From positions 1 to 64,000 of the IMG/VR virus record IMGVR_UViG_3300025372_000639: a stretch of 64,000 nucleotides of DNA; one strand, written 5' to 3'. How positions within the stretch are numbered: position 1 is the first letter of the stretch; each line of letters begins with the position of its first letter. This DNA comes from a virus. Lineage: Duplodnaviria; Caudoviricetes. Positions 4,947 to 61,749 of this stretch are shown one piece after another. The translations under genes were made by a program, and so were the position numbers. A model generated the notes under the pieces. It did not search any database. It had not been told where the DNA came from and was given only the letters and a program-made list of their open reading frames with translations.

Positions 4947-4986
4947 AAATAGCATCGCAGTTAAGTAGATATATAAATAGTTGACC

Positions 4987-6897: not shown

Positions 6898-7704
6898 ATG
6901 ATTAAAAAATTACTAGCAACACTAATCGCAGGTATTTTCGTTGGTTCTGTTTATGCACAAACAGCACCTACAGCCCCAACACAAGCATCTGCCCCAACAA
7001 TTACACAAGCATCTACAACTCGTTTTGCATCGGGCGTAACAGCATCATTGAATGCGAGTACAACAAACATTATCTATCTAGAGCAGACAGGTAATAGTCC
7101 TACTATCAGTATTAACCAAGACGGTAATAGTAACCGTGCTGGATCTGATAGTGCTGGAACAATTAACAGCATGGTGCTAAATGGTAATAACCAAATTGTT
7201 ACTATTGATCAAACTGGTAACAACAACATTATCAACACAATGAAAATCATTGGCAACGATGCTAATGTTTACCTACAACAAGCTGGTACAGGTAATACGG
7301 CTGTCGTAAGTTGCGGCTTGACAACAAGTTGCGCTGGTCAAGCAAGTCAGAACCAAAATGCATTGTTAGATTTGCGTTTTGCTGGTAACAGCAACGCCTT
7401 AAACTACACAGGCAATGGTGCCTCATTACAGGCCGCTGGTTATGTAACAGGTAATGGTAACACACTTAGTTTACAACAAACTGGTACAGCTGGACAACAA
7501 ATGTTAGTTAACCTAGCTAGCAGTGACAACAATACCGTAAATGTATTACAATCTAGTGCTTCTATGAGCAGCCTGGTATTGTCACAAAATGGTACAGGTG
7601 GCACAACATTTAATATCAGCCAGACTGGTGTATACTCTAATGTAGCCAACATCCAAGCAACTGCTGCCGGTGGTAGTTTTAATATTATCCAACGCAGCCA
7701 TTAA
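6898..7704 (+). CDS. curlin-repeat protein (CsgA/CsgB-like)
   Basis: signal peptide; repeated I-x-Q-x-G-N-x-N units. Confidence 0.8.
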   Translation: MIKKLLATLIAGIFVGSVYAQTAPTAPTQASAPTITQASTTRFASGVTASLNASTTNIIYLEQTGNSPTISINQDGNSNRAGSDSAGTINSMVLNGNNQIVTIDQTGNNNIINTMKIIGNDANVYLQQAGTGNTAVVSCGLTTSCAGQASQNQNALLDLRFAGNSNALNYTGNGASLQAAGYVTGNGNTLSLQQTGTAGQQMLVNLASSDNNTVNVLQSSASMSSLVLSQNGTGGTTFNISQTGVYSNVANIQATAAGGSFNIIQRSH

Positions 7705-8844: not shown

Positions 8845-11135
8845 AAAAATTATTCTTTGCCTTAATGATGCTATTATGCTGTGTTAAAGTATTTGCACAA
8901 GCGTATGACTCGATAGCCACTGCTTATGTTACCACAACTATATCACAGAACGTTGTGTTTAACAGCACCATGCAGGCTGGAGGTACATTTACCTTTAGCG
9001 TACTGGCACACAATGGCGGTGGCAGGGCGGGACAAAGTGATACGGCCAACGTTAAGATACAATTTTATACAAGTTCGGGATCATTAGTAACCAGTGTAAA
9101 CTCAAGTTACAACGCTAACTTACCGAACCCAAACGCAGTATGTGGTAATCCCTGTATTGATACTAGTGTCCCTTGGACAACGGTAACTACGTCGGCCACA
9201 CTGACTTCAACACAGGCTGCAAGTGTAGCATACGCCAAGGTCAGCATGTACGGTATTGATGGTAGTTATTGGGCCGGAGATTACGGTCCTTGGTACCGTG
9301 CTCCTACTCTACAACTTAACGGTAGTGGCAACTTATTGTATAATCCAGAGTTTGGACCATACAATGGTGTAACAGCACAGGGCTGGACCAGTAGTCCCGG
9401 CTTCGGTGCTTGTCAAGGTGCTTGGGGCGGATCAAATGCTTGTATTGTTAACAGCGACGGTGTACCGGGTACAAGTACAACAGGATTAGTTGCTAACCAA
9501 AACGGTGGCGGCCCAAGTTCCACTGGTGGTACTACAAGTGGACAGGCCGGCGGATACAATAGCACCATGAGCGTGACTAATGCCGGTACAGGAGCAACAG
9601 CAGGTTCACCACCTGCTCCTACCTTGGTCAGCACAACTACAACTAATACAACATCTACGATCATTGTAGGCAATCAACAACAAACCATAACAACACCAGT
9701 GACTACAAAAACTTATAGTGACGGAACACATACAACTACAAACGGAACTTCAACTACTACAACGGTCAGCAATACTGCATTTACCGGAGTTCATTTCGGT
9801 GCTGCCCAAGTAGCAGACGTTCAATGGGATGTATATGCTTGTACTCAAACTAGTACCTGTAATATCTATAGCACAATGCCCGGAGGAACATACAATACAG
9901 GAAGTTGGACCCCTATTGGTAGTAATCAATATATCACATTTATACCTAATACAGCATCAGACTCCGCTACAAATCCTTGGAGAATGATTCTAGTTAATAG
10001 TGACGGAACATTTACTGATTTAGGTAGCTGTACGATTACCGTACAAGGTACAGATAGTGCAGGCAACATTTACTTATTTGTTACAAATGATAATTGGAAC
10101 GGAACTTTATTAAGCGGCAACCTGGGACTAACCGGGCAAGGTATGACGTTTACAGGAACAGCAAATCCTTCAATGTCCGATACAAACTCATTAGCAGGTA
10201 ACATGAGTCCTACACCACTGGCTCCTGGACAGAGTGGAGGTGGAGCAGCTCCTACAATTACCAGTTCAACTACAACAAACAGCGTGAGTTCAAGTTCGAA
10301 TGTGGGGGCAACAACTACCACAACCAACACATATAACTGGAACGGAACAACGTATACAATAACTGGCACAGGAACTCCTACTACTATTACTACCGTTACA
10401 ACTCCTGTAACAACTAATACATGGAGTGACGGATCAACTACTACAACAAATGGTAGTAGCACTACAACAAATTCTACAACTTGGAACTACACGGTAACCG
10501 GTCCTACTAATGCTCCTACAAGTCCTTATGTAGGAACAAACGTTAATGGTGTTTATATAACTCAAGTCAACGCAGGCAGTAGCAATAATACAACTGCTGA
10601 CCAAAGTGGTCATGGTAACTATATGAATATTACATTAGGTGGAAGTAATAATACTACCAATGTTGGTCAAGGCTATACATTTAATACTATTGGCACAGCA
10701 AGCGAGTCAGCAACTGCTAGCAATTATAACGTACTAGGATACAACACATCCGGAAACACTAATACATTGGTTAGTTCTCAATTGGGATTATCAAATAGTG
10801 TTATTATCAGCAGTAGCGGTAACAACAATACTTCTACAATAACCCAATCGGGCAACAATAACCAAATGTATAGTTTAATAAACGGAAATGGAAACGCATT
10901 ATCATCTTCACAAACAGGAAATAGCAATATTGCTTCCACTAGTTTATACGGTAATAATAACGTGGCCAGCATTTCACAAACTGGTAGCAACCACGGTGTT
11001 GTAATAACTTTGGTAAATGCGGGTGGTGCCAACAATGCAAGCGTGGTCCAAACGGGCACAGGAGATGCTTATAGCCTACAACAAACCTGTACAAACTCAG
11101 CTGGATGCTCGGTCTCAGTTATTAGAAACAAATAA
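8841..11135 (+). CDS. large secreted Thr/Ser/Gly-rich protein with C-terminal curlin repeats
   Basis: signal peptide, Cys pairs, two Thr-rich linkers, C-terminal QxGNxN repeats. Confidence 0.75.
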   Translation: MKKLFFALMMLLCCVKVFAQAYDSIATAYVTTTISQNVVFNSTMQAGGTFTFSVLAHNGGGRAGQSDTANVKIQFYTSSGSLVTSVNSSYNANLPNPNAVCGNPCIDTSVPWTTVTTSATLTSTQAASVAYAKVSMYGIDGSYWAGDYGPWYRAPTLQLNGSGNLLYNPEFGPYNGVTAQGWTSSPGFGACQGAWGGSNACIVNSDGVPGTSTTGLVANQNGGGPSSTGGTTSGQAGGYNSTMSVTNAGTGATAGSPPAPTLVSTTTTNTTSTIIVGNQQQTITTPVTTKTYSDGTHTTTNGTSTTTTVSNTAFTGVHFGAAQVADVQWDVYACTQTSTCNIYSTMPGGTYNTGSWTPIGSNQYITFIPNTASDSATNPWRMILVNSDGTFTDLGSCTITVQGTDSAGNIYLFVTNDNWNGTLLSGNLGLTGQGMTFTGTANPSMSDTNSLAGNMSPTPLAPGQSGGGAAPTITSSTTTNSVSSSSNVGATTTTTNTYNWNGTTYTITGTGTPTTITTVTTPVTTNTWSDGSTTTTNGSSTTTNSTTWNYTVTGPTNAPTSPYVGTNVNGVYITQVNAGSSNNTTADQSGHGNYMNITLGGSNNTTNVGQGYTFNTIGTASESATASNYNVLGYNTSGNTNTLVSSQLGLSNSVIISSSGNNNTSTITQSGNNNQMYSLINGNGNALSSSQTGNSNIASTSLYGNNNVASISQTGSNHGVVITLVNAGGANNASVVQTGTGDAYSLQQTCTNSAGCSVSVIRNK

Positions 11136-28097: not shown

Positions 28098-28534
28098 CTA
28101 GATTGGAAACATGACAGAAACAGATAGTAAAAAATATAAACAGATTGAGTTTATAAAACAGCATACACTATCTCCAGATCAGTTTAAAACACTGATCGAG
28201 GAAAAGATAGAACGTGCTAGGTTGTACTCACAATCAGTTGGCAGAAAGCGAGAGACGGTCCTTCAACAAGACTATCGTTAGAATCGCAACTTGTGAATAG
28301 AGGAAACGAGGTCCTCGCTAGGCAAGTAAAACATCTAGCAAACGGGCGGCCTATCGGATGAAACTCCTTTTCTGGAGCGAAAAATGGTAGCGTATTAAAG
28401 TGTACTATAACCACTCCCCACTGAAGGGTAGAACGGCCGCGTAGCGTTAGTGCATTTTAATACACACATTCGGTCTGAGTACATAGTATAAAGAGGCAGA
28501 AAGATAAACTGCTAGAGTGTGTTGTAATAAATTT

Positions 28535-28621
28535 GGAGCCCTTTCCCGCTTGCGGTCTGTAAAATCGTAGCCATAACAAGGTGGGTGGTGGCAAGAGGTT
28601 CGATTCCTTAGGGCTCCACCA
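28535..28621 (+). tRNA. atypical tRNA-Tyr(GTA)-like, D-arm missing
   Basis: GGAGCCC/GGGCTCC-ACCA, loop CTGTAAA, TTCGATT T-loop. Confidence 0.6.
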
Positions 28622-28626
28622 AATTT

Positions 28627-28701
28627 GGTCTCGTCATATAGTGGTTATTATACCGGCCTGTCTAGTCGGATATCGGGGTTCGATTCCCCGCGGGATCGCC
28701 A
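28627..28701 (+). tRNA. tRNA-Asp(GTC)
   Basis: cloverleaf, loop CTGTCTA, GCCA end. Confidence 0.9.
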
Positions 28702-28705
28702 AACA

Positions 28706-28985
28706 TAAGATAGTCCTTATTGTTAGGACCGTAACGTCAAGGGAGTCGGGGCTAACCTTGTAAATCACGCCCGGCAGAAATACTAAGACAACACTTAGTA
28801 AGATGAGTAGACGGAAACCGACCCCTGCCGGAGCGCGGGGGCTTCAGCAGCATATGAGGTGGCTGACGATGCGAGAGTAAGTCGGTCCAGTAGGGGTAAG
28901 AAAAGTGTTGTTGGCGGCAAGAGCTGTTGAAGGACAGAAGCACAAATCCATAGAGGTGAAGATGTGCGCCGTGTATTCCTTCAAG
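28706..28985 (+). ncRNA. unidentified structured RNA
   Basis: GC-rich, hairpin-rich spacer between tRNAs; starts with a motif repeated at 30187. Confidence 0.4.
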
Positions 28986-28993
28986 AATTTTAT

Positions 28994-29069
28994 TCCATCT
29001 TCGTATTCTCGGTGAGTACCCCCGGCTGTTAACCGGAAGAGGTTGGTTCGAATCCAACAGATGGAGCCA
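28994..29069 (+). tRNA. tRNA-Asn(GTT)
   Basis: TCCATCT/AGATGGA, loop CTGTTAA, GCCA. Confidence 0.88.
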
Positions 29070-29143
29070 ATATTAAAACACGCTAACAGCGTCGTACCGG
29101 TCGCCGGACTTAGGTTGAATTCCTAATAGTGTGTTTTTATATT

Positions 29144-29218
29144 GGGGGCAGTAGTGGGCTACGGGTAACCCTTGCAAGGTTGCTGACTAGAAGGATTCGA
29201 TTTCCTCGGCCTCCACCA
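29144..29218 (+). tRNA. atypical tRNA-Ala(TGC)
   Basis: G3:U70, loop CTTGCAA, ACCA; short D-arm, irregular T-arm. Confidence 0.7.
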
Positions 29219-29376
29219 ATTTTCGGGATAGACGGTAGTTTAGAGTCCCACCCAACCTAGCATAGTGACTCAGCTATGTGACAGCAACAGGACGGTTAGG
29301 AGTGGTATTAGACTTGACTATTCGAGACAATCTAGCGAGTTCACCCAGGTGGATAGTTAGGCTCCCAACTTTTTAT

Positions 29377-29452
29377 CTCTCTAAAGTGTTATCTGGTTGC
29401 ATCCGCGGTTTGGGGCCGTGTGGTCCTGGTTCAAATCCAGGTAGGGAGACCA
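29377..29452 (+). tRNA. tRNA-Pro(TGG)
   Basis: cloverleaf, loop TTTGGGG, ACCA. Confidence 0.88.
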
Positions 29453-29458
29453 AGTTTT

Positions 29459-29521
29459 AGGTTGCGTTCAGCAAACATAATACATTTGACTTTTAATCAA
29501 AACCGTAAAAAAGCAACCTGT
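29459..29521 (+). ncRNA. CAGCAA-stem RNA 1 (Lys UUU anticodon stem-loop)
   Basis: AGGTTGC-GTTCAGCAA...TTTGA CTTTTAA TCAAA...GCAACCT-GT. Confidence 0.75.
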
Positions 29522-29529
29522 TATTTTAT

Positions 29530-29603
29530 TCCTCTATAGTTAAATGGTATAACAATCGGCTGATAACCGGTCATTACAAGTTCGATTCTTGTTGGAGGAA
29601 CCA
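29530..29603 (+). tRNA. tRNA-Ile(GAT)
   Basis: cloverleaf, loop CTGATAA, ACCA. Confidence 0.9.
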
Positions 29604-29608
29604 GTTTT

Positions 29609-29663
29609 AGGATACATTCAGCAAATTTAAATCTTTTTGGTATAAAGAAAAAAAGTATCCTGT
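29609..29663 (+). ncRNA. CAGCAA-stem RNA 2 (Thr GGU-like stem-loop)
   Basis: AGGATAC-ATTCAGCAA...TCTTT TTGGTAT AAAGA...GTATCCT-GT. Confidence 0.75.
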
Positions 29664-29671
29664 TTTATTGT

Positions 29672-29746
29672 TGGGGTGTAGTGTAATGGCTATCACAACG
29701 GGCTTTGAACTCGTTAATCTTGGTTCGATTCCAAGCACCCCTACCA
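29672..29746 (+). tRNA. tRNA-Gln(TTG)
   Basis: cloverleaf, loop CTTTGAA, ACCA. Confidence 0.9.
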
Positions 29747-29751
29747 GTTAT

Positions 29752-29827
29752 ATTGCGTTAGACTTCTGGGCTAGGTCAATAGGCTTTCAACCTATCTAGG
29801 CGGGTTCGATTCCCGTACGCAATACCA
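29752..29827 (+). tRNA. tRNA-Glu(TTC)
   Basis: cloverleaf, loop CTTTCAA, ACCA. Confidence 0.9.
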
Positions 29828-29835
29828 ATTTTAAT

Positions 29836-29927
29836 GCCAGCGAGACTTGGAAGTCAGAGAGTCCTTATAAGACTTTTAGCGCCAGATTAGCGTTCTTGAG
29901 AGGGTTCGATCCCCTCCGCTGGTACCA
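29836..29927 (+). tRNA. atypical tRNA with TAT anticodon (Ile) and long variable arm
   Basis: GCCAGCG/CGCTGGT-ACCA, GAGTC CTTATAA GACTT, T-arm GAGGG TTCGATC CCCTC. Confidence 0.7.
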
Positions 29928-29934
29928 ATATTAT

Positions 29935-30012
29935 GTACCGGTGGCAGAGAGGCCCAATGCAGTGGATTGCAAATCCGCAAAACCGTGAGTTCGAATCTCA
30001 CCCGGTATTCCA
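29935..30012 (+). tRNA. tRNA-Cys(GCA)
   Basis: loop TTGCAAA, U73 discriminator, CCA. Confidence 0.92.
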
Positions 30013-30020
30013 ATTTTAAT

Positions 30021-30098
30021 GCGTGGTTAGTGTTTAACGGTTTAGCATCACTGGCTTCCACCCAGTAGGAAAGAGTTCGAATCTCTTACCCCGCACCA
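30021..30098 (+). tRNA. tRNA-Gly(TCC)
   Basis: loop CTTCCAC, ACCA. Confidence 0.88.
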
Positions 30099-30105
30099 AT
30101 TCAAT

Positions 30106-30182
30106 GCGTGTGTAGTATAGCCAGGTAATTATTCTGGGTTGCCAACTCAGAGACTCGGGTTCGAATCCCGACACCCGCACCA
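30106..30182 (+). tRNA. tRNA-Gly(GCC)
   Basis: loop TTGCCAA, ACCA. Confidence 0.88.
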
Positions 30183-30282
30183 AATGTAAGATAGTTGCTA
30201 TCGCGTCCTGCAGGTAAGTTAGCAACCGTAACATCACGGACGGGCGTATATGCCGTGTAAGAAATGCGACTCAGAAATTTAT

Positions 30283-30356
30283 GCTTCGGTAGTTTAATGG
30301 CAGAACCTTGCTTTTACATAGCAAAGATGGGAGTTCGATTCTCCAACGAAGTACCA
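30283..30356 (+). tRNA. tRNA-Val(TAC)
   Basis: loop TTTACAT, ACCA. Confidence 0.85.
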
Positions 30357-30372
30357 GATAGAACATTTAGGT

Positions 30373-30443
30373 GTGGCCATAGTGTAATGGTAGCACTACA
30401 TGTTGTGACCTTGTCAGTACGGGTTCAAATCCCGTTGGTCACC
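30373..30443 (+). tRNA. tRNA-His(GTG), CCA not encoded
   Basis: GTGGCCA/TGGTCAC, C73, loop TTGTGAC. Confidence 0.8.
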
Positions 30444-30459
30444 CCTAAATGTTTTAATT

Positions 30460-30535
30460 GCCGCTTTAGCTGATGTGGTCATAGCACCGGTTTGAAGCAC
30501 CGAGGAACTAGGTTCGATCCCTAGAGGCGGCACCA
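30460..30535 (+). tRNA. tRNA-Phe(GAA)
   Basis: loop TTGAAGC, ACCA. Confidence 0.85.
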
Positions 30536-30543
30536 ATTTTTAT

Positions 30544-30620
30544 ATACCGGTAGTTCCAACTGGCAGAACATCAGTCTCCAAAATTGAGTGTTGGGGGTTC
30601 GAATCCCTCCCGGTATGCCA
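30544..30620 (+). tRNA. tRNA-Trp(CCA)
   Basis: loop CTCCAAA, GCCA. Confidence 0.9.
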
Positions 30621-30623
30621 AGT

Positions 30624-30819
30624 TTTGTAAGTGTTAGTAAGTGAAAATCACCGATTCGAGTAGCCGGCCAGCCAAAGAGTAGGTAAACAACGAGGGGCGC
30701 AATACCCTAGCACAAACATAGAAGCGTTGGATGAGTAACTGCAATGACGTACCGAGTCCTAGCCGGCTTTATATACATAGGTGAATGGTGCCAATAACGA
30801 TGGTGGCACAACTTACAAA
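30624..30819 (+). ncRNA. unidentified ~196-nt structured RNA
   Basis: closed by TTTGTAAGT/ACTTACAAA; fills the spacer between two tRNAs. Confidence 0.45.
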
Positions 30820-30827
30820 TTCAATAT

Positions 30828-30902
30828 GCCGTAGTAGTTCTCTGGGAGGGCAACGGATTGTCTATCCGACTCAGGCGAGTTCGATTCTCGTCTACGGCGC
30901 CA
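30828..30902 (+). tRNA. tRNA-Asp(GTC)
   Basis: loop TTGTCTA, GCCA. Confidence 0.85.
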
Positions 30903-30907
30903 GTTTT

Positions 30908-31008
30908 AGGATGATTACAGCAAACTTTTTTCTGCAGCCATATTTGCAGGCCGGCCCGCTTGGGGGCGTGTCGTGGGTTCGAGTCCCGGCTTAGACACAG
31001 CATCCTGT
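30908..31008 (+). ncRNA. CAGCAA-stem RNA 3 (contains a T-arm)
   Basis: AGGATG-ATTACAGCAA...GGG TTCGAGT CCC...CATCCT-GT. Confidence 0.75.
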
Positions 31009-31023
31009 TATTTTTGACCATTT

Positions 31024-31142
31024 AGGTTCTTTTCAGCAATCTTATTAAATCTTTCTGAAAAAAAGACGGACCGGGTTCGAATCCCGGGCACTGCTTGGTC
31101 AGCGGTGTTGGTGTAGTGGTAGCACAAAAAATGAGAACCTGT
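31024..31142 (+). ncRNA. CAGCAA-stem RNA 4, circularly permuted tRNA-Phe mimic (YrlA-like)
   Basis: AGGTTCT/AGAACCT stem enclosing anticodon arm, T arm, loop-closed acceptor stem and D arm. Confidence 0.82.
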
Positions 31143-31145
31143 TTT

Positions 31146-31220
31146 GCCCCTGTAGTATAATGGATAATACACCGGTCTACGAAATCGGGAATTGTGGTTC
31201 GATTCCATACAGGGGCGCCA
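31146..31220 (+). tRNA. tRNA-Arg(ACG)
   Basis: loop CTACGAA, GCCA. Confidence 0.92.
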
Positions 31221-31221
31221 G

Positions 31222-32193
31222 TTATAGTAAATCAATTTCACTGATTACGGTTTGGCCACCAAATGCTAAACTAGTTTTCAGCATTCTTTTATATGTAAAA
31301 GATGTAGGACTAGTAATAATTCTATCATCGTTTACTAGTTTATTACCTGATATGATGTTAGGTTTTAACACATTATCTTTTTTGCAGTCCAGTGCCATGC
31401 AAATTTCAACAGCACCGGATGCACTCATGCAGTGACCTACATAACCTTTGAAACCTACAATAGGTATATCGTGTTTGCAGGTCTCCTTAAAGAATGTATA
31501 CTCAAAGGTATCTCCAATTGGAGTGCCTGTTGCGTGTGCGTTCCATAGATCGATTTTATCATAGTCTATGTGACTGAATTGTTTAACAATGTTTTCTACA
31601 TCGCCTGGATGTGTAACAAGATCAGGCTGTGTGTAGAATGAAAAATTTTGTATGATTGCTTTTGCATCTAGCGGATATTTAACACTAGGATGTTTAACAA
31701 TCATTAAAGAAATACCTGTTCCCATTTTGAATCCTTGACTGGTAGAGTCAAATGGCAATCCTTTATCGGAATCAATAGCACCAATGCTATTAAACTGCCA
31801 CAGACGATATCCTAAATTAAAGTCATCGCCGCAAAATACCACAACAGGTGTTTGTGAATCTAAGCTCATCAATGTAGCTTGATATAATGCATACAATGAT
31901 CCTGCACATGCGGCACGAACGTTGAATGCTTGTTTTTGCAGTCCTAATTTTTGTCCTACCATTGATGTAAGGAAATTAGACAGAGCATTTTTAAATAAAC
32001 TAGGCTTGTTCCTAGCTTTTCCAGACAGATATCTTGCCCAGGAATCTTCCTCTCCCTGATATTCAACGGTAGACATTGAGGCTGTTACCAACGGCCAATT
32101 AGGTTTAACAATAGATTGAAATTGCGGATCAGAAAGAAAACTTTCTGGATTCCAAATTGTGTCGTACTTGTATTCGAGTATTTCGCATTGCAT
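31222..32193 (-). CDS. beta-ketoacyl synthase (FabB/FabF-like)
   Basis: AACAGSL (catalytic Cys), NAHATGTPIGD, KGYVGHCMSASG, SLAFGG. Confidence 0.88.
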   Translation of the reverse strand: MQCEILEYKYDTIWNPESFLSDPQFQSIVKPNWPLVTASMSTVEYQGEEDSWARYLSGKARNKPSLFKNALSNFLTSMVGQKLGLQKQAFNVRAACAGSLYALYQATLMSLDSQTPVVVFCGDDFNLGYRLWQFNSIGAIDSDKGLPFDSTSQGFKMGTGISLMIVKHPSVKYPLDAKAIIQNFSFYTQPDLVTHPGDVENIVKQFSHIDYDKIDLWNAHATGTPIGDTFEYTFFKETCKHDIPIVGFKGYVGHCMSASGAVEICMALDCKKDNVLKPNIISGNKLVNDDRIITSPTSFTYKRMLKTSLAFGGQTVISEIDLL

Positions 32194-32236
32194 AGGCAGA
32201 TATTTAATCCTGCGAATGACTGGTATAAATATTAAC

Positions 32237-32785
32237 ATGAAGAAGTATCATTCTAATTTAAAATTACCTGTACCGTTTGTACCTTTTGAAAAAGGATCTG
32301 ATCATTTTGATGAAGTTCCTATAACGGACGAGCATATGAGTCCGGAGTTCCTCAACTGGTTAGCAGGTATGGGATTAACTTTCCGTAAGGCAAGATTTTT
32401 TAACAGCATTCCGAATCAACAATATCGATTACATGTCGACGGAGACGTTGTAAAAGAATTAGTAAAATTAAACATAGTATTTGATAGTACAGATACAATT
32501 ATGAACTGGTACGAGCCCGTAGATGGTTATCAAGGTACACTTAAACCTAACGGCCTAGGTCAACCGGTATTGTATTATGATAAAGATAAATGTAATTTAT
32601 TACACAGCAAACCAGTGAATACACATTGTATCCTAGCTGGAAACATTGTACATGATCTAGTAAACGGTCCTAACAATGGACAAAGTCGAAAATGTTATTC
32701 GATGTTTTTAGTTCACAAGGCTACAGATACATTAGTGAAATGGGACGAAGCACTAGAGTTGTTTGGCCCACATCTAATCGATTAA
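32237..32785 (+). CDS. 2OG-Fe(II) oxygenase-like / cupin protein
   Basis: HVD...H...R pattern. Confidence 0.55.
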   Translation: MKKYHSNLKLPVPFVPFEKGSDHFDEVPITDEHMSPEFLNWLAGMGLTFRKARFFNSIPNQQYRLHVDGDVVKELVKLNIVFDSTDTIMNWYEPVDGYQGTLKPNGLGQPVLYYDKDKCNLLHSKPVNTHCILAGNIVHDLVNGPNNGQSRKCYSMFLVHKATDTLVKWDEALELFGPHLID

Positions 32786-32793
32786 TATTTCTT

Positions 32794-33411
32794 ATGAAGT
32801 ACACTATTATCGAAGATTGTAGTCCCTACTACATTAGATTTAAACACGAAGGTATTGAAGATCTTATAGAATACTTGCGTAACATTTATAGCACATCAAA
32901 ATTTGTTCAATCATTTACATGGAACAAATATTTTATGCATTGTAGATTAACACGCGAAGACGGTATACGGCTACTGGAAAAAATTCCAGTAGCCGATGAC
33001 ATGAACTTTTTAAAACAACGAGTTAGTTTCTTTGTAAGCAAACCAGGTCTATATTATAGAGCACACAAGGATGGTATAAATGATCAGTTTAGTATAAACT
33101 ATACTATTGATATTGCCGACGATAAGTGTGTTACAAGTTGGTATGATGATGCTGATTTAAAAGAGTACCAATCTTCTACCAATTCTGGCAATTCTAGAGA
33201 ATGTATCAACTTTGATAAAAGTAAACATGTCCCGTTAAAATCAATGATAGCAAAACAAGGTGAATGCATATTGTTTAATACTAACATATATCATGATTGG
33301 GATAATACACTTTCTTCAAATCAACGAGTAGTACTAACACTTCGTCACGAAACACCGGGACAGGTGACATTTGATGATGCTAAACAAATTTTATTCAGGT
33401 CCTTAGTTTAA
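32794..33411 (+). CDS. 2OG-Fe(II) oxygenase-like protein
   Basis: HKD...FNTNIYH...RVVLTLR. Confidence 0.6.
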   Translation: MKYTIIEDCSPYYIRFKHEGIEDLIEYLRNIYSTSKFVQSFTWNKYFMHCRLTREDGIRLLEKIPVADDMNFLKQRVSFFVSKPGLYYRAHKDGINDQFSINYTIDIADDKCVTSWYDDADLKEYQSSTNSGNSRECINFDKSKHVPLKSMIAKQGECILFNTNIYHDWDNTLSSNQRVVLTLRHETPGQVTFDDAKQILFRSLV

Positions 33412-33470
33412 TGGTAGAACACTACCTCGACACGGTGAAGACACAAGTTCAATTCTTGTAGGACCTACCA
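33397..33470 (+). tRNA. tRNA-Val(GAC)
   Basis: AGGTCCT/AGGACCT-ACCA, loop TCGACAC (C33); overlaps the stop of the upstream CDS. Confidence 0.8.
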
Positions 33471-33475
33471 ATTAT

Positions 33476-33550
33476 GCTCCTTTAATATAAAGGCTATTAT
33501 ACCGGTTTTGTAGTCCGGTTATTGCGGTTCGAGTCCGTGAGGGAGCACCA
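33476..33550 (+). tRNA. tRNA-Thr(TGT)
   Basis: loop TTTGTAG, ACCA. Confidence 0.8.
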
Positions 33551-33556
33551 AATTAT

Positions 33557-33647
33557 AGTGAGTTGGCAGAGCGGCGAATGCAGAAGTTTGCTAAACTTTA
33601 GGTTGACGGAAGTTGACCCGTGGGTTCGAGTCCCACACTCACTGCCA
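33557..33647 (+). tRNA. tRNA-Ser(GCT)
   Basis: loop TTGCTAA, long variable arm, GCCA. Confidence 0.88.
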
Positions 33648-33656
33648 AGAAAACGG

Positions 33657-33685
33657 TTGACAACTACCGCAAAAGGTTGTATAAT
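33657..33685 (+). promoter_or_regulatory. sigma70 promoter
   Basis: TTGACA-17-TATAAT. Confidence 0.85.
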
Positions 33686-33829
33686 AAACACATAAACAAA
33701 AAGGAAACGACATGAAACGTTCAGGTAAACGATAGTGTCAACCTTAGATCCCGTATTGGTCTAGGGTTGGCACATTAAAGATCTCTTTAACAAGAATTAA
33801 GACGTTAAAGAAACTTTTAATACAACTAA

Positions 33830-33905
33830 CCCTTTCTAGCGTTAATGGTAGCGCACTTGACTCTTAATCAATGAGGTGTCGGTTCGAATCCGACGGGAGG
33901 GACCA
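33830..33905 (+). tRNA. tRNA-Lys(CTT)
   Basis: loop CTCTTAA, ACCA. Confidence 0.9.
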
Positions 33906-33909
33906 ATAT

Positions 33910-33985
33910 GGGGCCATAGTTAAGCGGTTATAACATCACCCTTTTAAGGTGTAAGACCTCGGTTCGAATCCGAGTGGCCCTACCA
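33910..33985 (+). tRNA. tRNA-Lys(TTT)
   Basis: loop CTTTTAA, ACCA. Confidence 0.88.
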
Positions 33986-34046
33986 AAAGATGTTGTTTTA
34001 TATGGAACTTTGCTAAATAATAGTAATATTTTAATTAAGGTTCGAT

Positions 34047-34625
34047 ATGAAACAATGTCCTAAATGTAAAGCAGAGCACAATAATTCTGGAACGTTCTGT
34101 TCAAGAAGTTGTGCTAATAGCAGAGTATTTTCTGATGAGTCTAAATTTAAAAAGAGTATAGCACTCAAAGGTAGAAAGCCCACAGGCGTTATTGCAGACA
34201 AAGAAGCATGGGCAAGGAAGATAAAGGAAACGGCATTACAAAAATACTTAGCAAAGTCCTTTGATGAGTTAGGTATGGAAAATAAACGTCGAAGAGTATT
34301 TGAGGAACAGAAGTATTGTTGTAATAAGTGCGGCATAAGTGAATGGTTCACTAGGCCTATATCTTTAGAGTTAGAACATAAAGATGGGAATAACTTAAAC
34401 AATATAAGAGAAAATTTAGAAGGATTGTGCCCTAATTGTCATAGTATCACAGATACATGGCGAGGAAGAAACAAGCCTGCTAAAAATGGAATTAATCAAA
34501 TTAGTGATGAATCTTTGTTGCAATGTCTTAAAGAGTCTAAAAATATTAGACAGGGCTTGTTAAAGGCAGGTATAGCGGCAAAAGGTAAGAACTACGAGAG
34601 AGCAAAAAAATTATTAGGACGTTAA
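34047..34625 (+). CDS. HNH endonuclease
   Basis: FCSRSC zinc motif; LELEHKDGNNLNN..NLEGLCPNCH. Confidence 0.9.
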   Translation: MKQCPKCKAEHNNSGTFCSRSCANSRVFSDESKFKKSIALKGRKPTGVIADKEAWARKIKETALQKYLAKSFDELGMENKRRRVFEEQKYCCNKCGISEWFTRPISLELEHKDGNNLNNIRENLEGLCPNCHSITDTWRGRNKPAKNGINQISDESLLQCLKESKNIRQGLLKAGIAAKGKNYERAKKLLGR

Positions 34626-34732
34626 CGTCCTACCATATAAAAACACATTAGAGAGTGGGCTAGCGTATATTCTACCATAAGAACGGATATAGGTGACTTG
34701 GTTCAATTCCAAAGTCTAGTGTGTTTCTATAT

Positions 34733-34808
34733 GGTGATGTAGCATAGCGGCTAATGTACCTCCTTCATACGGAGATTATCGTCGGTTCGAGTCCGACCAT
34801 CACTACCA
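34733..34808 (+). tRNA. tRNA-Met(CAT) (elongator or Ile2)
   Basis: loop TTCATAC, ACCA. Confidence 0.85.
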
Positions 34809-34815
34809 AGAATAC

Positions 34816-34904
34816 GGAGGGTTAACTGGGCTGGGCCCAGCACGGTCTTGAAAACCGATGGTGTGCGAAAGCGCATAGAGTTCGATTCTACTAGCCCTCC
34901 TCCA
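34816..34904 (+). tRNA. tRNA-Ser(TGA)
   Basis: loop CTTGAAA, variable arm GTGC GAAA GCGC, CCA. Confidence 0.82.
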
Positions 34905-34911
34905 AGTTAAT

Positions 34912-35004
34912 GGGGAATACTTCCGCTTGGTTGCGGAGGCATTCTGTTTAGAATGTGTACAGCAAAACATCAAACAATTGGTTCGACTCCAATATTCCCC
35001 GCCA
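34912..35004 (+). ncRNA. CCA-ended tRNA-like RNA with a permuted CAGCAA module replacing the anticodon arm
   Basis: GGGGAAT/ATTCCCC-GCCA, T-arm, GCATTCT gttt AGAATGT-GTACAGCAA. Confidence 0.78.
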
Positions 35005-35010
35005 CAATTT

Positions 35011-35131
35011 GCCGCTGTCGTCTAATGGTAGGACACCTTATAAAAGGGTGACTCTGTATAGAGTACGTTCAGCAATTTTCTTAATCCATGCCAAGGGGGT
35101 TATCTAGGTTCGAATCCTAGCGGCGGCACCA
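35011..35131 (+). ncRNA. CCA-ended tRNA-like RNA with a permuted CAGCAA module
   Basis: GCCGCTG/CGGCGGC-ACCA, D and T arms, ACTCT gtat AGAGT-ACGTTCAGCAA. Confidence 0.78.
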
Positions 35132-35307
35132 ATTTATAAGTTGTTAATGAAGCGTAGTGCTTTATTGACATTAGTGAAATAACGTATCATAAATTCTTGA
35201 TCATAGATATCTTGAATCATAACACAGCACACACCTTCATACAAAGACAGATGAAAGTGAAGTCCGTTTGGTGTTAAACTATCATACGTTCTCACAAAAA
35301 TATTTAT

Positions 35308-35384
35308 GCCCCGTTACGCTAATTGGTAGTGCGGATTCTCTCAAAAGGAGTTGGTTGTAGGTTCGAATCTTACACGGGGTACCA
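35308..35384 (+). tRNA. tRNA-Leu(CAA) lacking a long variable arm
   Basis: loop CTCAAAA, ACCA, short variable loop. Confidence 0.78.
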
Positions 35385-35391
35385 AACATTT

Positions 35392-35467
35392 GCCCGCGAA
35401 GTATTAGTCGGTGGTACACCGCCCTCGTAACGCGGAAGATTCAGTTCGAGGCTGAACGTGGGCACCA
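35392..35467 (+). tRNA. tRNA-Thr(CGT)
   Basis: loop CTCGTAA, ACCA. Confidence 0.8.
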
Positions 35468-35509
35468 AAAAATGCCAAGTTATCGTAAATATATTTGATA
35501 AATAGAATT

Positions 35510-36154
35510 ATGCAATATTGGATATTTGGACATACAGGTTCGGGATACATAGAAATATCAAACCTCATAGAACATGCGGATAATGTTTATCCAGCTGACG
35601 GTCAGAAGCTTTGGAAAAATGTAGATCGAAATTTTAAGAAAAGACAGATAGGATGGATGCCTCCGAGATGGGTTAACATTTACGGTCTATTTGAAGCACC
35701 TCAACCTGACTTTGACCCTTCAGATTATATATTGAACCCTGTCTATCTTAAATTATTAGAAGAAGGGAAAAATACGGTTATACCTGCACATTATCGTCAG
35801 TACTTAAATTATATTGATCTTGTTCCATTTAAAGACACAATAACCAAAGACATGCATAAAATCTTTGTGTCTTCGAGTGATAAGCAAAGAATGATAAACG
35901 ATATAGCAGTCAATCATCCTAACTTAACGGATCAAGATAAAATCAAAGCCCAAGCAGAGATTATAGATTATAATCCACTAACCATGCAATATTTTAAACC
36001 AGAAGGTGGATACGATACCATCATCGAATTAGAAAGAGTGTGGGAAGACTGGAACTATTTGAATAACATTCTAACTGCAATTGGCATCAATCTTCAGAAA
36101 AAATTCTACGATACTTACATGGAAAAGTCTAATGCCATGCGTTCCAGGTCTTGA
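35510..36154 (+). CDS. hypothetical protein
   Basis: long ORF with TAAATA upstream. Confidence 0.6.
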   Translation: MQYWIFGHTGSGYIEISNLIEHADNVYPADGQKLWKNVDRNFKKRQIGWMPPRWVNIYGLFEAPQPDFDPSDYILNPVYLKLLEEGKNTVIPAHYRQYLNYIDLVPFKDTITKDMHKIFVSSSDKQRMINDIAVNHPNLTDQDKIKAQAEIIDYNPLTMQYFKPEGGYDTIIELERVWEDWNYLNNILTAIGINLQKKFYDTYMEKSNAMRSRS

Positions 36155-36190
36155 CATTATAGCAAAAATCTGCTAAACTTATAAAATAAT

Positions 36191-36265
36191 CTGGCGTTAG
36201 TATAATGGATAATACAATGAGCTTCTACCTCATGAATGTGGGTTCGATTCCTGCACGCCGGGCCA
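36191..36265 (+). tRNA. tRNA-Arg(TCT)
   Basis: ATGAG CTTCTAC CTCAT, GCCA. Confidence 0.9.
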
Positions 36266-36272
36266 TACATTA

Positions 36273-36349
36273 CGGTCATTAGCTCAACTGGATAGAGTCC
36301 CGGTCTTCGAAACCGGTTGTTGCAGGTTCGAGTCCTGTGTGGCCGGCCA
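36273..36349 (+). tRNA. tRNA-Arg(TCG)
   Basis: CCGGT CTTCGAA ACCGG, GCCA. Confidence 0.92.
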
Positions 36350-36371
36350 CTGCACTCTGTTAAATAACTTC

Positions 36372-37121
36372 ATGAATATTCCTTTTACAACTACATTTAA
36401 AACAGATAAAGGTCCATGTACCGTAAGTTATAACAACGGAGATCTTTTTAGATCAGTATGCGGAGGACAATCTGGACTCTTTGATCGATTATCTCCGGAA
36501 CAATTTAATACATGGTTTAATCGATATCATCGAAATTGTTGGAATAGACGATGGGGACACGGATTGTGGAAAGAAGTACCAACAGATAATCCTATTACTA
36601 TTACTGACATAGGCTGCGGACACGCCTTTCAGGATTTAATGTCCGCAGTATATATGCCTAATGCTAGCTTTCATTTAATTGATGGCGATGAATTTTGCCA
36701 AGGTAAAAACCCTACATGGACTGCTGATGGATCATTTATATACAATGATTGGAATGTTGTACGTGACGGTATTGCTAGTAATAATTTAGATCCTGATAGA
36801 TTTGTAATTAATACTCTCGGAAGAGACCCATGGCCTATGAGTGACATCGTTACTAGTTTTTATAGTTGGTGCTTTCATTATAGTACAGATGTATATTTAG
36901 AAAAAGTACTGGCGTCATTAAAACCAGGTGGCAAATTATATCTTACTATTAGAATGATCAAAAATGATCCTAGTATTGAAAAAATTTCAAACGCATTAGG
37001 TGTTAGACCAGAATTTATGAATACATACGACGTTAGTACTAAATCAAATCATATACCAGTATTCAACGATGCTGTTGATTATTTTTATGCAGAGGTCATG
37101 TGGATTCGACCTAAGGCATAA
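36372..37121 (+). CDS. class I SAM methyltransferase
   Basis: DIGCG motif I; LKPGG. Confidence 0.8.
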   Translation: MNIPFTTTFKTDKGPCTVSYNNGDLFRSVCGGQSGLFDRLSPEQFNTWFNRYHRNCWNRRWGHGLWKEVPTDNPITITDIGCGHAFQDLMSAVYMPNASFHLIDGDEFCQGKNPTWTADGSFIYNDWNVVRDGIASNNLDPDRFVINTLGRDPWPMSDIVTSFYSWCFHYSTDVYLEKVLASLKPGGKLYLTIRMIKNDPSIEKISNALGVRPEFMNTYDVSTKSNHIPVFNDAVDYFYAEVMWIRPKA

Positions 37122-59827: not shown

Positions 59828-59856
59828 TTGACAAAGCGTAAAAAGTGCGCTATAAT
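59828..59856 (+). promoter_or_regulatory. sigma70 promoter of the Ro60-like locus
   Basis: TTGACA-17-TATAAT. Confidence 0.88.
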
Positions 59857-59885: not shown

Positions 59886-59939
59886 AGGATCGATACAGCA
59901 ATCTTATTACATTCATAAAGTAAACAAAGACGATCCTGT
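59886..59939 (+). ncRNA. CAGCAA-stem RNA 5 (leader of the Ro60-like gene; CAU-type loop)
   Basis: AGGATCG-ATACAGCAA...TTAC A TTCATAA A GTAA...CGATCCT-GT. Confidence 0.78.
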
Positions 59940-59962: not shown

Positions 59963-61354
59963 ATGACTACATTCGCTGAAGCAGTTAAGTCTACCCCAGC
60001 GGTAGCTCGTACCGAAAACGGTATGAAGGCAAAGGCTCATTCGGGCAATGCCCTTGTAGACCTGTTCTACAAGATTGGTGCATCACGTGGTAAGTCTGTA
60101 ACCGCAGACTTCGAAAAGGCCTTCCAGGAAGATGCCGACCTAGCAATGAAAATTGCATTCTGGTCGCGTGACGTCCGTGGCGGTGCTGGTGAACGTCAGA
60201 TCTTTCGTGATGTACTTGTACATCTAGAAAAGTTGCATCCAGAAACTCTGGAAGCAGTTCTTCCTTTCGTATCCGAATTCGGTCGTTGGGATGATTTGCT
60301 AGTGTTCAAGACTGAAAAGTTCAAGCACATGGCATACACCCTAATCGGTGATGCTTTGCGTGAACGCAATGGTCTTTGCGCTAAGTGGATGCCACGTCAA
60401 GGTCCAATTGCAATCGAAATCCGTAACTTCTACGGCATGACACCTAAGCAATATCGTAAGAGCCTAGTTGCCCTTACTAATGTTGTTGAACAAAAGATGT
60501 GTGCTAAGGACTGGGACGGTATCGAATTCGGTAAGTTGCCATCGCTAGCTTCGGCTCGATACAACAAGGCATTCGCTAAGAACGCTACTGCGTCTTACGA
60601 AGCATACAAGGCTCGCTTGACTGCGGGTACAGACAAGGTAAACGCTAGTGCAGTTTACCCATACGATGTCATCAAGACCTTGCGTCATGGTGGCGATAGT
60701 GTGGTAGCAGATGCTCAATGGGCATCGTTGCCAAACTACATCGGCGATGCCAGCGTTATGCCTTTGGTTGACGTTTCTGGTTCGATGTGTTGCCCAGTTG
60801 GCGGAAACGCTAACCTGCAATGTATCGATGTTGCTTTGTCGTTGGGTCTGTACTGCGCTGATAAGAACACAGGTGTATTCAAGGATACATTCTTGACTTT
60901 CAGTGCTAAGCCAAAGGCACAAGTTGTTAAGGGTACACTTGCTCAGAAAATGAGCCAAATGAACTCTAGCGACTGGGGCATGAACACTAACCTACATGCG
61001 GCGTTTGACGAAATCTTACGCATCGCTGTTAAGGGTGGTGTGTCGCAAGACAACATGCCTAAGACTTTGCTGATCTTGTCAGACATGCAATTTGATGCTT
61101 GCATCAAGCACGATGACTCTGCTATGCAGATGATCAAGCGTAAGTACAAGGATGCAGGATACGAAGTTCCAAACGTTGTATTCTGGAACCTGAACAGCAA
61201 GGACAATGTCCCTGTTAAGTTCGACAAGCAAGGTACTGCTTTGGTGTCTGGATTCAGTCCAGCAGTTATGAAGGGCATCTTAAGTGGTGCTGACATGACT
61301 CCATATGGTATCATGCTAGCCACGGTTGACGTACCACGTTATTCCGTGTTATAA
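59963..61354 (+). CDS. DUF2828-type TROVE/Ro60-like protein with C-terminal vWA domain
   Basis: RDVRGGAGER, FGRWDDL, AKWMPR; vWA MIDAS DVSGSM...T...SDMQFD; strong AAGGAG RBS. Confidence 0.82.
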   Translation: MTTFAEAVKSTPAVARTENGMKAKAHSGNALVDLFYKIGASRGKSVTADFEKAFQEDADLAMKIAFWSRDVRGGAGERQIFRDVLVHLEKLHPETLEAVLPFVSEFGRWDDLLVFKTEKFKHMAYTLIGDALRERNGLCAKWMPRQGPIAIEIRNFYGMTPKQYRKSLVALTNVVEQKMCAKDWDGIEFGKLPSLASARYNKAFAKNATASYEAYKARLTAGTDKVNASAVYPYDVIKTLRHGGDSVVADAQWASLPNYIGDASVMPLVDVSGSMCCPVGGNANLQCIDVALSLGLYCADKNTGVFKDTFLTFSAKPKAQVVKGTLAQKMSQMNSSDWGMNTNLHAAFDEILRIAVKGGVSQDNMPKTLLILSDMQFDACIKHDDSAMQMIKRKYKDAGYEVPNVVFWNLNSKDNVPVKFDKQGTALVSGFSPAVMKGILSGADMTPYGIMLATVDVPRYSVL

Positions 61355-61364
61355 ATAAAGTACG

Positions 61365-61523
61365 AGGTTAGGTTCAGCAATATTCAATAACATTGAACTG
61401 CTTACATCTATGTCAATAACTGGAGCCTTAATTGTCTTTGAAGGTTATTGACATATATGGATGTAAGATAAAGGAGTTTCGATATTCTCCTTGACAAAAA
61501 CAAAAAGTAGACAACTAGCCTGT
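61365..61523 (+). ncRNA. CAGCAA-stem RNA 6
   Basis: AGGTTAG-GTTCAGCAA...long internal hairpin, GGAG-TTTCGA..CTCC...CTAGCCT-GT. Confidence 0.75.
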
Positions 61524-61533
61524 TTATTTTATT

Positions 61534-61719
61534 AGGATGGGTACAGCAATGTACTACTAACGAAGGTTTGGGGTAACCCGAACGGCTGGTCCGGCTTTAT
61601 AAGGACTTTGTGTCTAGTCGAGAAACTAGAATCGGGCGCTACCGATTAGCGATAGGGTCGGGGAGACACAAAAGTGATATCGACCAGAAAATAAATTAAT
61701 AAATCTCCAACCATCCTGT
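61534..61719 (+). ncRNA. CAGCAA-stem RNA 7
   Basis: AGGATGG-GTACAGCAA...multi-hairpin insert...CCATCCT-GT. Confidence 0.75.
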
Positions 61720-61720
61720 A

Positions 61721-61749
61721 AATAGGACTCTTCGGAGTCCTATTTTTTT
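61721..61749 (+). terminator. intrinsic terminator
   Basis: AATAGGACTC TTCG GAGTCCTATT TTTTT. Confidence 0.9.

Follow-up and report, generated by a model that had tools for sequence, protein, structure and literature searches.

Phage RNAs with a CAGCAA dock carry mimics of tRNA anticodon arms and are linked to the gene of a predicted Ro60-like protein

Introduction

Small RNAs that combine a constant, stem-closed CAGCAA motif with a variable interior are encoded in a stretch of 64,000 nucleotides (nt) of tailed-phage DNA (positions 1 to 64,000 of the 128,309-base IMG/VR record IMGVR_UViG_3300025372_000639, with a CheckV completeness of 31%; the stretch is called the window here), and hairpins with the geometry of a tRNA anticodon arm are enriched in these RNAs and in their homologues. 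The RNAs lie in tRNA arrays and on both sides of a gene whose product has a predicted fold like that of Ro60, and we consider it rather probable that the anticodon-arm mimics are the tRNA-derived variable part of modular phage Y-like RNAs, in which a constant dock is joined to a variable module. The preliminary description of this DNA, made from its letters, had noticed anticodon stem-loops in several of the RNAs and had suggested that they could act as decoys, inhibitors or sensors for tRNA-targeting defences.

The window is rich in tRNAs (40 by ARAGORN), and at the gathering thresholds of Rfam only tRNAs were returned for it, with 36 matches; the stem-CAGCAA family is absent from Rfam at that level. 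DNA of the window region is present in freshwater metagenomes, according to a search of sequencing runs, and a megablast of window positions 28500-36500 against phage records gave no match. We found no published description of the family in a literature search to which the supplementary files of the Y-RNA, Class I RNA and PhageMaP papers did not belong, and the PhageMaP preprint only guesses that some 'tRNA genes' of phage Bas63 are Y RNAs.

Results

A family of stem-CAGCAA RNAs with anticodon-arm hairpins

The design that was scanned for is a 7-nt strand starting with AG(G), followed by N-T-W, CAGCAA, a variable interior, the complementary 7-nt strand up to CCT, and G(T). In the 128-kb record, a motif-anchored scan gave 13 motif matches, nine of which have a well-placed stem partner, all nine on the plus strand of the window. 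Seven of these are standalone RNAs, starting at 29459, 29609, 30908, 31024, 59886, 61365 and 61534 (the first five are called RNAs 1 to 5), while the remaining two sit within tRNA-like RNAs (34912-35004 and 35011-35131) as circularly permuted modules, in which the 3' strand comes first and a 4-nt loop, the 5' strand and CAGCAA follow. Homologues were sampled from 49 IMG/VR loci around homologues of the Ro60-like protein (numbered L) and from ten regions of named phages. In 58 sources with 961,218 bases, a relaxed scan that demanded the motif, a stem paired at 7/7 positions with at most one G·U, and the 3' G found 135 hits on the same strand as the protein gene and six on the opposite strand, and these correspond to 109 unique RNAs in 73 clusters. 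The dock of the family is a terminal stem of 7 base pairs (bp), whose 5' strand is followed at once by NUWCAGCA(A) and whose 3' strand is followed by G(U); the stems vary yet stay paired, as in AGGATCG/CGATCCT, AGGCTAG/CTAGCCT and AGACTCA/TGAGTCT. Family members are placed directly upstream and downstream of the protein gene and in nearby tRNA arrays.

Anticodon-arm hairpins were counted by a test that requires U33, R37 and a 7-nt loop on a stem of 5 bp or more, and that excludes T loops, with dinucleotide shuffles as the control; a strict rule additionally asks for Y32-U33-NNN-A37-A38. Among the homologues only, 28 of 102 unique RNAs pass, compared with 6.62 ± 2.39 in the shuffles (maximum 14 in 500), and under the strict rule 22 pass, compared with 0.88 (maximum 5); the comparison of such loops with shuffled sequences that the preliminary description had proposed therefore came out as an enrichment. 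When all unique RNAs are taken together, the numbers are 31 of 109 vs 7.41 ± 2.52 (maximum 15 in 1000 shuffles), and 24 vs 1.02 under the strict rule. With one representative per cluster, 15 of 73 pass vs 4.87 (maximum 12), and 10 vs 0.70 under the strict rule, and in a narrower set of RNAs 30 of 83 pass vs 5.40. Arms are found in 9 of 39 RNAs shorter than 70 nt, in 20 of 41 of 70-130 nt, and in 2 of 29 longer than 130 nt. The triplet shown by the 31 arm-bearing RNAs is most commonly UGU (12 RNAs), and UUU, UGA, GAA, GGU, UCA, GGA, GUU, CGU, UAU, UCU and GUA also occur.

The surroundings of the arms are tRNA-like as well. Of the 109 RNAs, 27 include a T-arm-like hairpin. Fourteen of these 27 have, just upstream, a hairpin with a loop of 7 nt whose end is 2-7 nt, mostly 4-5 nt, away from the T stem, which is the arrangement of tRNA; by eye, each of the two counts was judged to contain one spurious call. 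At one end of the range stands L023 5187-5292, in whose stem a whole cloverleaf is nested (5210-5281; RF00005, 60.1 bits; a loop of the Arg UCU type, without CCA), a third topology beside the permuted and the arm-only forms. RNAs of 86-91 nt contain a D arm, an anticodon arm and a T arm, and the terminal stem replaces the acceptor stem. In RNA 4, L036 1401, L041 9648 and at 5154 of Cronobacter phage S13, the order is permuted: the arm is followed by a T arm, a closed acceptor stem that often still has ACCA, and a D arm. RNAs of 75-76 nt consist of a D-like hairpin, the arm and a GNRA-capped hairpin, and RNAs 1 and 2 have the arm alone. From these sequence comparisons, the hairpin appears to be an anticodon arm by descent, and the variable interior a tRNA-derived part that forms a graded series from the cloverleaf to the arm only. 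The phage's own tRNAs have GC-rich anticodon stems, whereas the stems of the arms are rich in A and U, and the arms are therefore not recent copies of those genes.

The arm mimics of the window

The first RNA of the window (RNA 1, 29459..29519, plus strand like all features described here) lies between tRNA-Pro and tRNA-Ile and is closed by the terminal stem AGGTTGC/GCAACCT with the motif GTTCAGCAA. Its arm mimic at 29485..29501 consists of TTTGA (29485-29489), the Lys UUU type loop CTTTTAA (29490-29496) and TCAAA (29497-29501). It had been described as the only structure of this RNA, and it is indeed present in both the minimum free energy (MFE) and the centroid fold and is the sole internal helix of the latter; the loop is, as had also been said, identical to that of the tRNA-Lys(UUU) at 33910. 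RNA 2 (29609..29661; terminal stem AGGATAC/GTATCCT, motif ATTCAGCAA) is located between tRNA-Ile and tRNA-Gln, and its possible arm mimic of the Thr GGU type at 29632..29648 is composed of TCTTT (29632-29636), TTGGTAT (29637-29643) and AAAGA (29644-29648). This pairing is possible and passes the arm test, with U at position 38, but the MFE and centroid folds favor another weak hairpin with a 5-nt loop.

RNA 4 (31024..31140) is a circularly permuted tRNA-like RNA with the anticodon arm at 31050-31066, the T arm at 31071-31087, a closed acceptor hairpin at 31088-31108 and the D arm at 31111-31125. The arm TCTTT-CTGAAAA-AAAGA is a clean hairpin of 5 bp and 7 nt, as had been proposed, and because its end is 4 nt away from the T arm, with the acceptor hairpin and the D arm coming after, it occupies the place of an anticodon arm. 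The loops of RNAs 1 and 4 (CUUUUAA and CUGAAAA) both have U33 and A37 on 5-bp stems. The phage's own tRNA-Phe(GAA) at 30460-30535 has an odd loop, TTGAAGC (U32, G37, C38), where RNA 4 shows CTGAAAA. RNA 3 (30908..31006) has a terminal stem that pairs at 6/7 positions only, for which it was excluded from the arm test of the window, a hairpin with an 8-nt loop at 30932-30949 and the T-arm-like sequence GGGTTCGAGTCCC; no anticodon loop had been proposed for it in the preliminary description.

Two further loops that had been listed as anticodon loops fall short of this geometry. The hairpin of RNA 5 (59886..59937) at 59907-59923, TTAC-A-TTCATAA-A-GTAA, does contain the 7-nt TTCATAA loop (59912-59918), but its TTAC/GTAA stem has only 4 bp, an A·A mismatch lies between this stem and the loop, and in the MFE fold the loop has 9 nt. 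The letters ATGCCAA of the RNA starting at 35011 (35088-35094) are present but closed by only three pairs, and the hairpin is absent from the MFE fold; the counterpart of this RNA in Cronobacter phage S13 has a 5-pair arm, TTTCC-ATTCCAA-GGAAG. The proposed set of isolated stem-loops is thus clean for RNAs 1 and 4, exists as an alternative fold in RNA 2, and is short of 5 bp in the other two.

In the window, three of the six standalone RNAs tested pass the arm test, compared with an expectation of 0.516, and two of six pass the strict rule, compared with 0.09 in the shuffles, where 18 of 5000 reach this count. One could ask whether such arms are simply AT-rich hairpins with accidental 7-nt loops. 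The stems are short and rich in A-U or G-U throughout, the fold z-scores are modest (-1.1 for RNA 1, -1.9 for RNA 2, -2.5 for RNA 5), and 57 of 5000 shuffles equal the count of three in the window; however, the enrichment persists in the homologues and at the level of clusters, and the spacing to the T arm is that of a tRNA, so that we regard chance as a hardly credible explanation.

tRNA-like RNAs with a permuted dock module

The two RNAs that carry permuted modules are closer to tRNAs. The first (34912..35004) has an acceptor stem, a T arm and CCA, with the module GCATTCT-GTTT-AGAATGT followed by GTACAGCAA (34939-34965) and without an anticodon arm; the second (35011..35131) has an acceptor stem, D arm, T arm and CCA, and its module (35049-35075) stands between the D arm and the weak anticodon-like hairpin (35085-35097) that includes the ATGCCAA loop. 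In S13, the record's tRNA-Ser (121 nt, 4896-5016) and tRNA-OTHER (113 nt, 5026-5138) are tRNA-likes with the permuted module between the D and anticodon arms, and after these two over-long 'tRNAs' follows a permuted tRNA-like stem-CAGCAA RNA at 5154-5288. The tRNA array beside the two RNAs of the window also contains a match to the selenocysteine tRNA family RF01852 at 34816-34900, with 50.2 bits and above the gathering score of 47.

The retention of acceptor stem, T arm and CCA in both RNAs, and the tRNA annotation of their S13 equivalents, would fit a role in translation, in which the arms enter decoding sites of the ribosome or the CCA-ended tRNA-likes are chargeable tRNAs with a protein-docking insert. 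We think this very unlikely, as the RNA at 34912 has no anticodon arm at all, and RNAs 1, 2, 4 and 5 do not have a CCA-ended acceptor stem; for these four, the premise of the preliminary description that their loops are non-chargeable holds.

Constraint on the arm

Hardly any change is seen in the arm stems, D arm and T arm of the 86-89-nt group, where it is positions 32 and 34-36 that vary (GAA, UGU, UGA, UAU); one member has an 8-nt loop. The single difference in 55 nt between L010 and L014 is the middle of the triplet, and the five sites at which RNA 4 differs from its L015 orthologue include position 35 and a compensatory pair of the T stem. Eight of the nine members of the 75-76-nt group retain UGU, and the ninth has CGU together with a compensatory change in the arm stem; in L025, the arm stem has changed in a compensatory way from TTTGA/TCAAA to TTTCA/TGAAA. 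Judged by these alignments, the shape of the arm and the flanks of its loop are conserved while the triplet is often free.

These data bear on the alternative that the RNAs arose from tRNA genes in the arrays and that the arm is a functionless remnant, only the terminal stem and CAGCAA being of importance. The graded series from full cloverleaf to arm only is what such a decay would leave, canonical arms occur in one clade and are absent from distant members, and the triplet is unconstrained. However, C32, U33, A37, A38 and the 5-bp stems are fixed while linkers and triplet vary, there is a compensatory change in the arm stem, and the strict consensus, with its 24 cases against 1.02, would be hard to retain unselected in RNAs that have been stripped of their other tRNA parts. 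A mere residue is therefore, in our view, unlikely.

The Ro60-like protein and its gene

The open reading frame at 59963..61354 encodes a protein of 463 amino acids that matches Pfam DUF7788 (E 1.4e-50), DUF2828 (E 2.2e-28) and phrog_850, an 'RNA-binding protein' (E 1.4e-152). It was modeled with AlphaFold2 from an alignment of 15 sequences (mean predicted local distance difference test score, pLDDT, 73), and the best whole-length matches of the model in Foldseek were the TROVE/Ro60 protein of Thermus phage phiLo (9kop, E 2.8e-9; 9l5y), Deinococcus radiodurans Rsr (2nvo) and a Ro60/La complex (9nfa); E-values for Ro60/TROVE chains ranged from 2.8e-9 to 6.2e-5, and vWA domains came next in the list. 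The protein thus has a Ro60-like predicted fold of TROVE plus vWA, and the protein scaffold that had been presumed for the RNAs has a modeled candidate next to them. Since a phmmer search against PDB sequences reached TROVE chains only at E ~1, the link to Ro60 needed the fold search.

By tblastn, homologues are found in 710 phage records, 707 of which cover at least 80% of the query, and these include large phages of Escherichia, Mycobacterium, Salmonella, Vibrio, Listeria, Staphylococcus and Campylobacter. A search of a protein atlas returned only the protein's own DUF2828/DUF7788 viral clusters. More distant homologues (27-28% identity) are encoded in the giant-virus metagenome bins L048-L050, in whose sampled stretches we saw no stem-CAGCAA motif with a convincing stem. 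Eukaryotes have DUF2828 as well, the papers found on it being from plants and tardigrades, and none of them deals with phages or RNAs. The gene of the window lies next to tRNA arrays, and in Listeria phage LP-083-2, the homologue gene stands between a tRNA array and genes for an RtcB-like protein and an RNA ligase. Searches of the window's record for RtcB, RNA_ligase and RNA_lig_T4_1 gave no match, which is uninformative for a record that is 31% complete and with an RNA_lig_T4_1 search that was blank in control genomes, too.

A consensus match to a sigma-70-type promoter (TTGACA-17-TATAAT, 59828..59856) precedes RNA 5 and the protein gene, and two longer family members follow the gene, of 157 nt (61365..61521) and 184 nt (61534..61717), with a terminator-like hairpin (61720-61745) behind the latter. 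Neither of these two RNAs showed an anticodon-arm mimic. With the promoter ahead of RNA 5 and the terminator-like hairpin after the last RNA, RNA 5 belongs to the 5' leader of the protein's mRNA, and the Ro60-like protein could, by acting on this leader, be a regulator of its own mRNA. RNA 5 itself comes after the promoter and ahead of the gene's ribosome-binding site; in relatives, the 3' strand of its counterpart continues directly into GAAAGGA. A CAU loop was seen by eye in 7 of 11 aligned leader RNAs, and its pairing with the start codon may be considered. Within the 184-nt RNA, at 61584-61687, the letters GGCTGGTCCG / TCGACCAG can form a helix with a bulged C that resembles the Ro-binding helix of metazoan Y RNAs; an Rfam search by E-value of the stretch that holds this part listed no Y_RNA match.

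Distribution among named phages

Family RNAs stand beside the homologue gene in Salmonella phage BPS17L1, Listeria phage LP-083-2, Campylobacter phage CPX, Staphylococcus phage S-CoN_Ph4 and E. coli phage Bas63. In S-CoN_Ph4 (L058), three tandem RNAs of 59-63 nt (8815-8877, 8892-8951 and 8964-9022) directly follow the homologue gene; they start with AAG or AAA and end with CUU-G, near the AAG...CUGU ends reported for Class I RNAs. Escherichia phage JohannRWettstein/Bas63 (L059) has stem-CAGCAA RNAs at 7382-7439, 7837-7904 and 7924-8049 in the tRNA array behind bas63_0130, and as the third overlaps the minus-strand hypothetical coding sequence bas63_0137 (7891-8043), this coding sequence may be a mis-call. 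The motif did not turn up in the regions scanned of Mycobacterium phage LeBron, Serratia phage BF and Vibrio phage nt-1, which covered ±3 kb in the last two. The small stable RNAs rnaC and rnaD of the T4 tRNA cluster were considered as relatives and rejected, as they do not have the AG-N5-NTW-CAGCA motif.

Discussion

A constant dock with a variable, tRNA-derived module

Our data are best explained, in our opinion, by a modular RNA whose dock most likely binds the neighboring Ro60-fold DUF2828/DUF7788 protein, while the variable module—from a whole nested or permuted cloverleaf down to an arm alone—would face outward from the complex. The module may then serve as a handle or bait for a factor that recognizes tRNA anticodon arms, and candidates for such a partner would be an immune nuclease, a modification enzyme, a repair ligase or the ribosome. 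The Ro60 of a Thermus phage binds phage Y-like RNAs and host PNPase.

Several points weigh against this interpretation. Canonical arms are present in only 15-16 of the 73 clusters and hardly in RNAs above 130 nt (2 of 29), and they occur only in phages whose protein is at least ~54% identical to that of the window, with weaker cases in S13 (49%) and L041 (43%). In Felixounavirus phages, the arm of the permuted tRNA-like RNA shows a CAGGTAA or CCGGTAA loop that lacks U33; the loops seen in the Staphylococcus phage are CGCTAAT or 8 nt long, that of the Campylobacter phage has 5 nt, and the RNAs of the Listeria phage have other, non-canonical loops. Because distant members are without a canonical arm, it is not needed for the core function of the family and is an elaboration within the family and not its defining part. 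Furthermore, the arms are thermodynamically weak, and that of RNA 2 lies outside its MFE fold. An alignment of 11 RNAs upstream of the gene with MAFFT and RNAalifold recovered only the terminal stem (5 pairs, one of them compensatory); the internal hairpin, whose register differs between sequences, was missed. For expression, the only evidence comes from contigs of relatives in four metatranscriptome runs, with 7-10 differences over RNA 4 and 6 over RNA 3; these give a weak hint, as they are possibly DNA-derived and do not resolve ends and strand. Finally, the binding of the dock by the protein is a step that we infer because of the analogy to Ro60 and Y RNAs and the linkage of the genes.

Does the family act in phage defence?

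A defence-related role of the ribonucleoprotein (RNP) is plausible. The tblastn matches of the window protein include bas63_0130 (38.9% identity), and in the PhageMaP preprint gene 130 of Bas63 (gp130) was reported to counter Ppl: its deletion severely cut plaque size, complementation restored it, and the authors describe the structure of gp130 as Ro60-like. A counter-defence role for the RNP is reasonable because of this homologue. TROVE proteins of jumbo phages have been placed together with RNA-repair systems that answer anticodon-loop cleavage.

More specifically, the arms could be decoys, competitive inhibitors or cleavage sensors for anticodon nucleases such as PrrC, RloC, PARIS AriB, P2-OLD-like or VapC-like enzymes, and could in this way protect tRNAs or signal an attack. 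A single phage displays a panel of loops (UUU, GGU, GAA and CAU in the window; UCU, GUU, GGA and UGU in L023), consensus promoters would transcribe the RNAs together with the tRNA arrays, and the rapid divergence of the triplet on a constant arm would fit an arms race. The commonest triplet, UGU in 12 of the 31 arms, would match the tRNA-Thr(UGU) that P2-OLD prefers, with Lys UUU and Asn GUU being cut more slowly, according to the available part of that report (PMC12445682), and the Rad50-like ATPase of Ppl, which gp130 is reported to counter, resembles that of OLD (PMC13648713). These points are indirect, however: orthologues differ in their triplets, one has an 8-nt loop, and a turnover of this kind can equally be neutral. 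PrrC and zymocin, moreover, prefer modified wobble bases, which counts against a decoy as well. The AU-rich stems do not contain the paired CNG motif that P2-OLD requires, and resistant phage tRNAs do not act by competition, as far as the accessible text of PMC12445682 describes. In addition, a U33 arm is lacking in Bas63, the sole phage for which an anti-defence phenotype is reported, and Ppl was described to attack DNA ends, not tRNA (PMC13648713). We therefore regard a decoy function as doubtful, in preference for the modular Y-like RNA with its tRNA-derived module.

An extension of both ideas would be a Ro60-like protein that carries an exchangeable panel of arms on a common dock, as baits that titrate or report anticodon-arm nucleases, with the turnover of the triplets as the trace of an arms race. 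We put this forward as a speculation that is unlikely to hold; if it were true, the same design of dock and variable loop in the Class I RNAs of Dictyostelium would point to an ancient shared RNP principle. Bas63, with three stem-CAGCAA RNAs near gp130, offers a tractable model to find out what the tRNA-like module binds.

Comparison with known RNAs

Phage tRNAs that evade defence, such as the UGU Thr tRNAs by which cells are rescued from P2-OLD, resemble the stem-CAGCAA RNAs in that they are phage-encoded in tRNA arrays and that the anticodon arm matters in the conflict. They are, however, chargeable and replace the cleaved host tRNAs, as set out in the available portion of PMC12445682, whereas RNAs 1, 2, 4 and 5 are not chargeable.

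A similarity exists also to the Class I RNAs of Dictyostelium (RF01414). These are 42-65 nt long, their ends are joined by a stem of 6-7 bp that varies in sequence yet stays paired, and the 5' strand of the stem runs directly into a conserved motif that ends in UUACAGCAA; the interior is variable and A/U-rich, and the RNAs begin with A(A)G and finish with CUG(U). The phage RNAs that align to the model share the short terminal stem, the CAGCAA motif at this place and the CUG(U) end. Five phage RNAs match RF01414 below threshold with 17.6-32.5 bits: in the window, the scores are 31.6 (RNA 2), 26.2 (RNA 1), 20.6 and 17.6, with the matches at 29460-29520, 29610-29662, 31026-31093 and 59887-59938 all below the gathering score of 41.5, and the fifth, L023 8297-8353, has 32.5. 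No RF01414 match lay outside of stem-CAGCAA RNAs in the stretches searched. The Class I RNAs differ by their amoebal hosts and their DUSE promoter ~60 nt upstream, whereas the phage RNAs have bacterial-type promoters upstream. In the parts of Kjellin et al. (2021; PMC7919456) that were accessible, Class I RNAs are reported from Dictyostelia only, and the only proven binder is the RRM protein Rnp1A. The likeness may be due to either homology or convergence. The function of Class I RNAs has been unsettled since 2004, and the similarity could offer DUF2828 as a candidate class of protein partners.

The Y RNA Yrn1 of D. radiodurans, which tethers PNPase, was modeled with a possible anticodon arm on a 5-bp stem (Chen et al., 2014; PMC4201824, in its available part), but the loop has 6 nt and not 7, and there is no CAGCAA dock.

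Together with the Class I RNAs, the YrlA RNAs (RF02553) are the closest known RNAs. Bacterial YrlA RNAs mimic tRNA, and Ro60 binds Y RNAs that gate or tether, as described in the accessible sections of Chen et al. (2014; PMC4201824). Both groups are small RNAs that are encoded beside the gene of a protein with a Ro60 fold, a predicted one in the phages, with several copies per locus, and both can combine a terminal stem with a permuted tRNA-like domain of T arm, closed acceptor stem and D arm, as in RNA 4. This YrlA-type domain is found in RNA 4 and several relatives and is absent from RNAs 1, 2 and 5; the best-scoring relative, L023 9638-9736, reaches 37.7 bits against RF02553, for which the gathering score is 69, and there is no gathering-level match in the window. 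The systems differ in their protein, which in the phages is a DUF2828/DUF7788 protein and not a Pfam TROVE protein, its Ro60 likeness being one of fold apart from the marginal phmmer matches, and in their docks, which consist of a stem with a single-stranded CAGCAA in the phage RNAs and of a bulged Ro-binding helix in YrlA. Many phage members possess a true anticodon arm, which YrlA does not have, and many are only 49-66 nt long and contain neither T nor D arm. To the known tRNA-mimicking Y RNAs, the phage family adds a minimal, arm-only form on a probable protein dock. By its sequence features, the stem-CAGCAA family thus appears to be a kind of tRNA-mimicking Y-like RNA in which the anticodon arm is the new feature.

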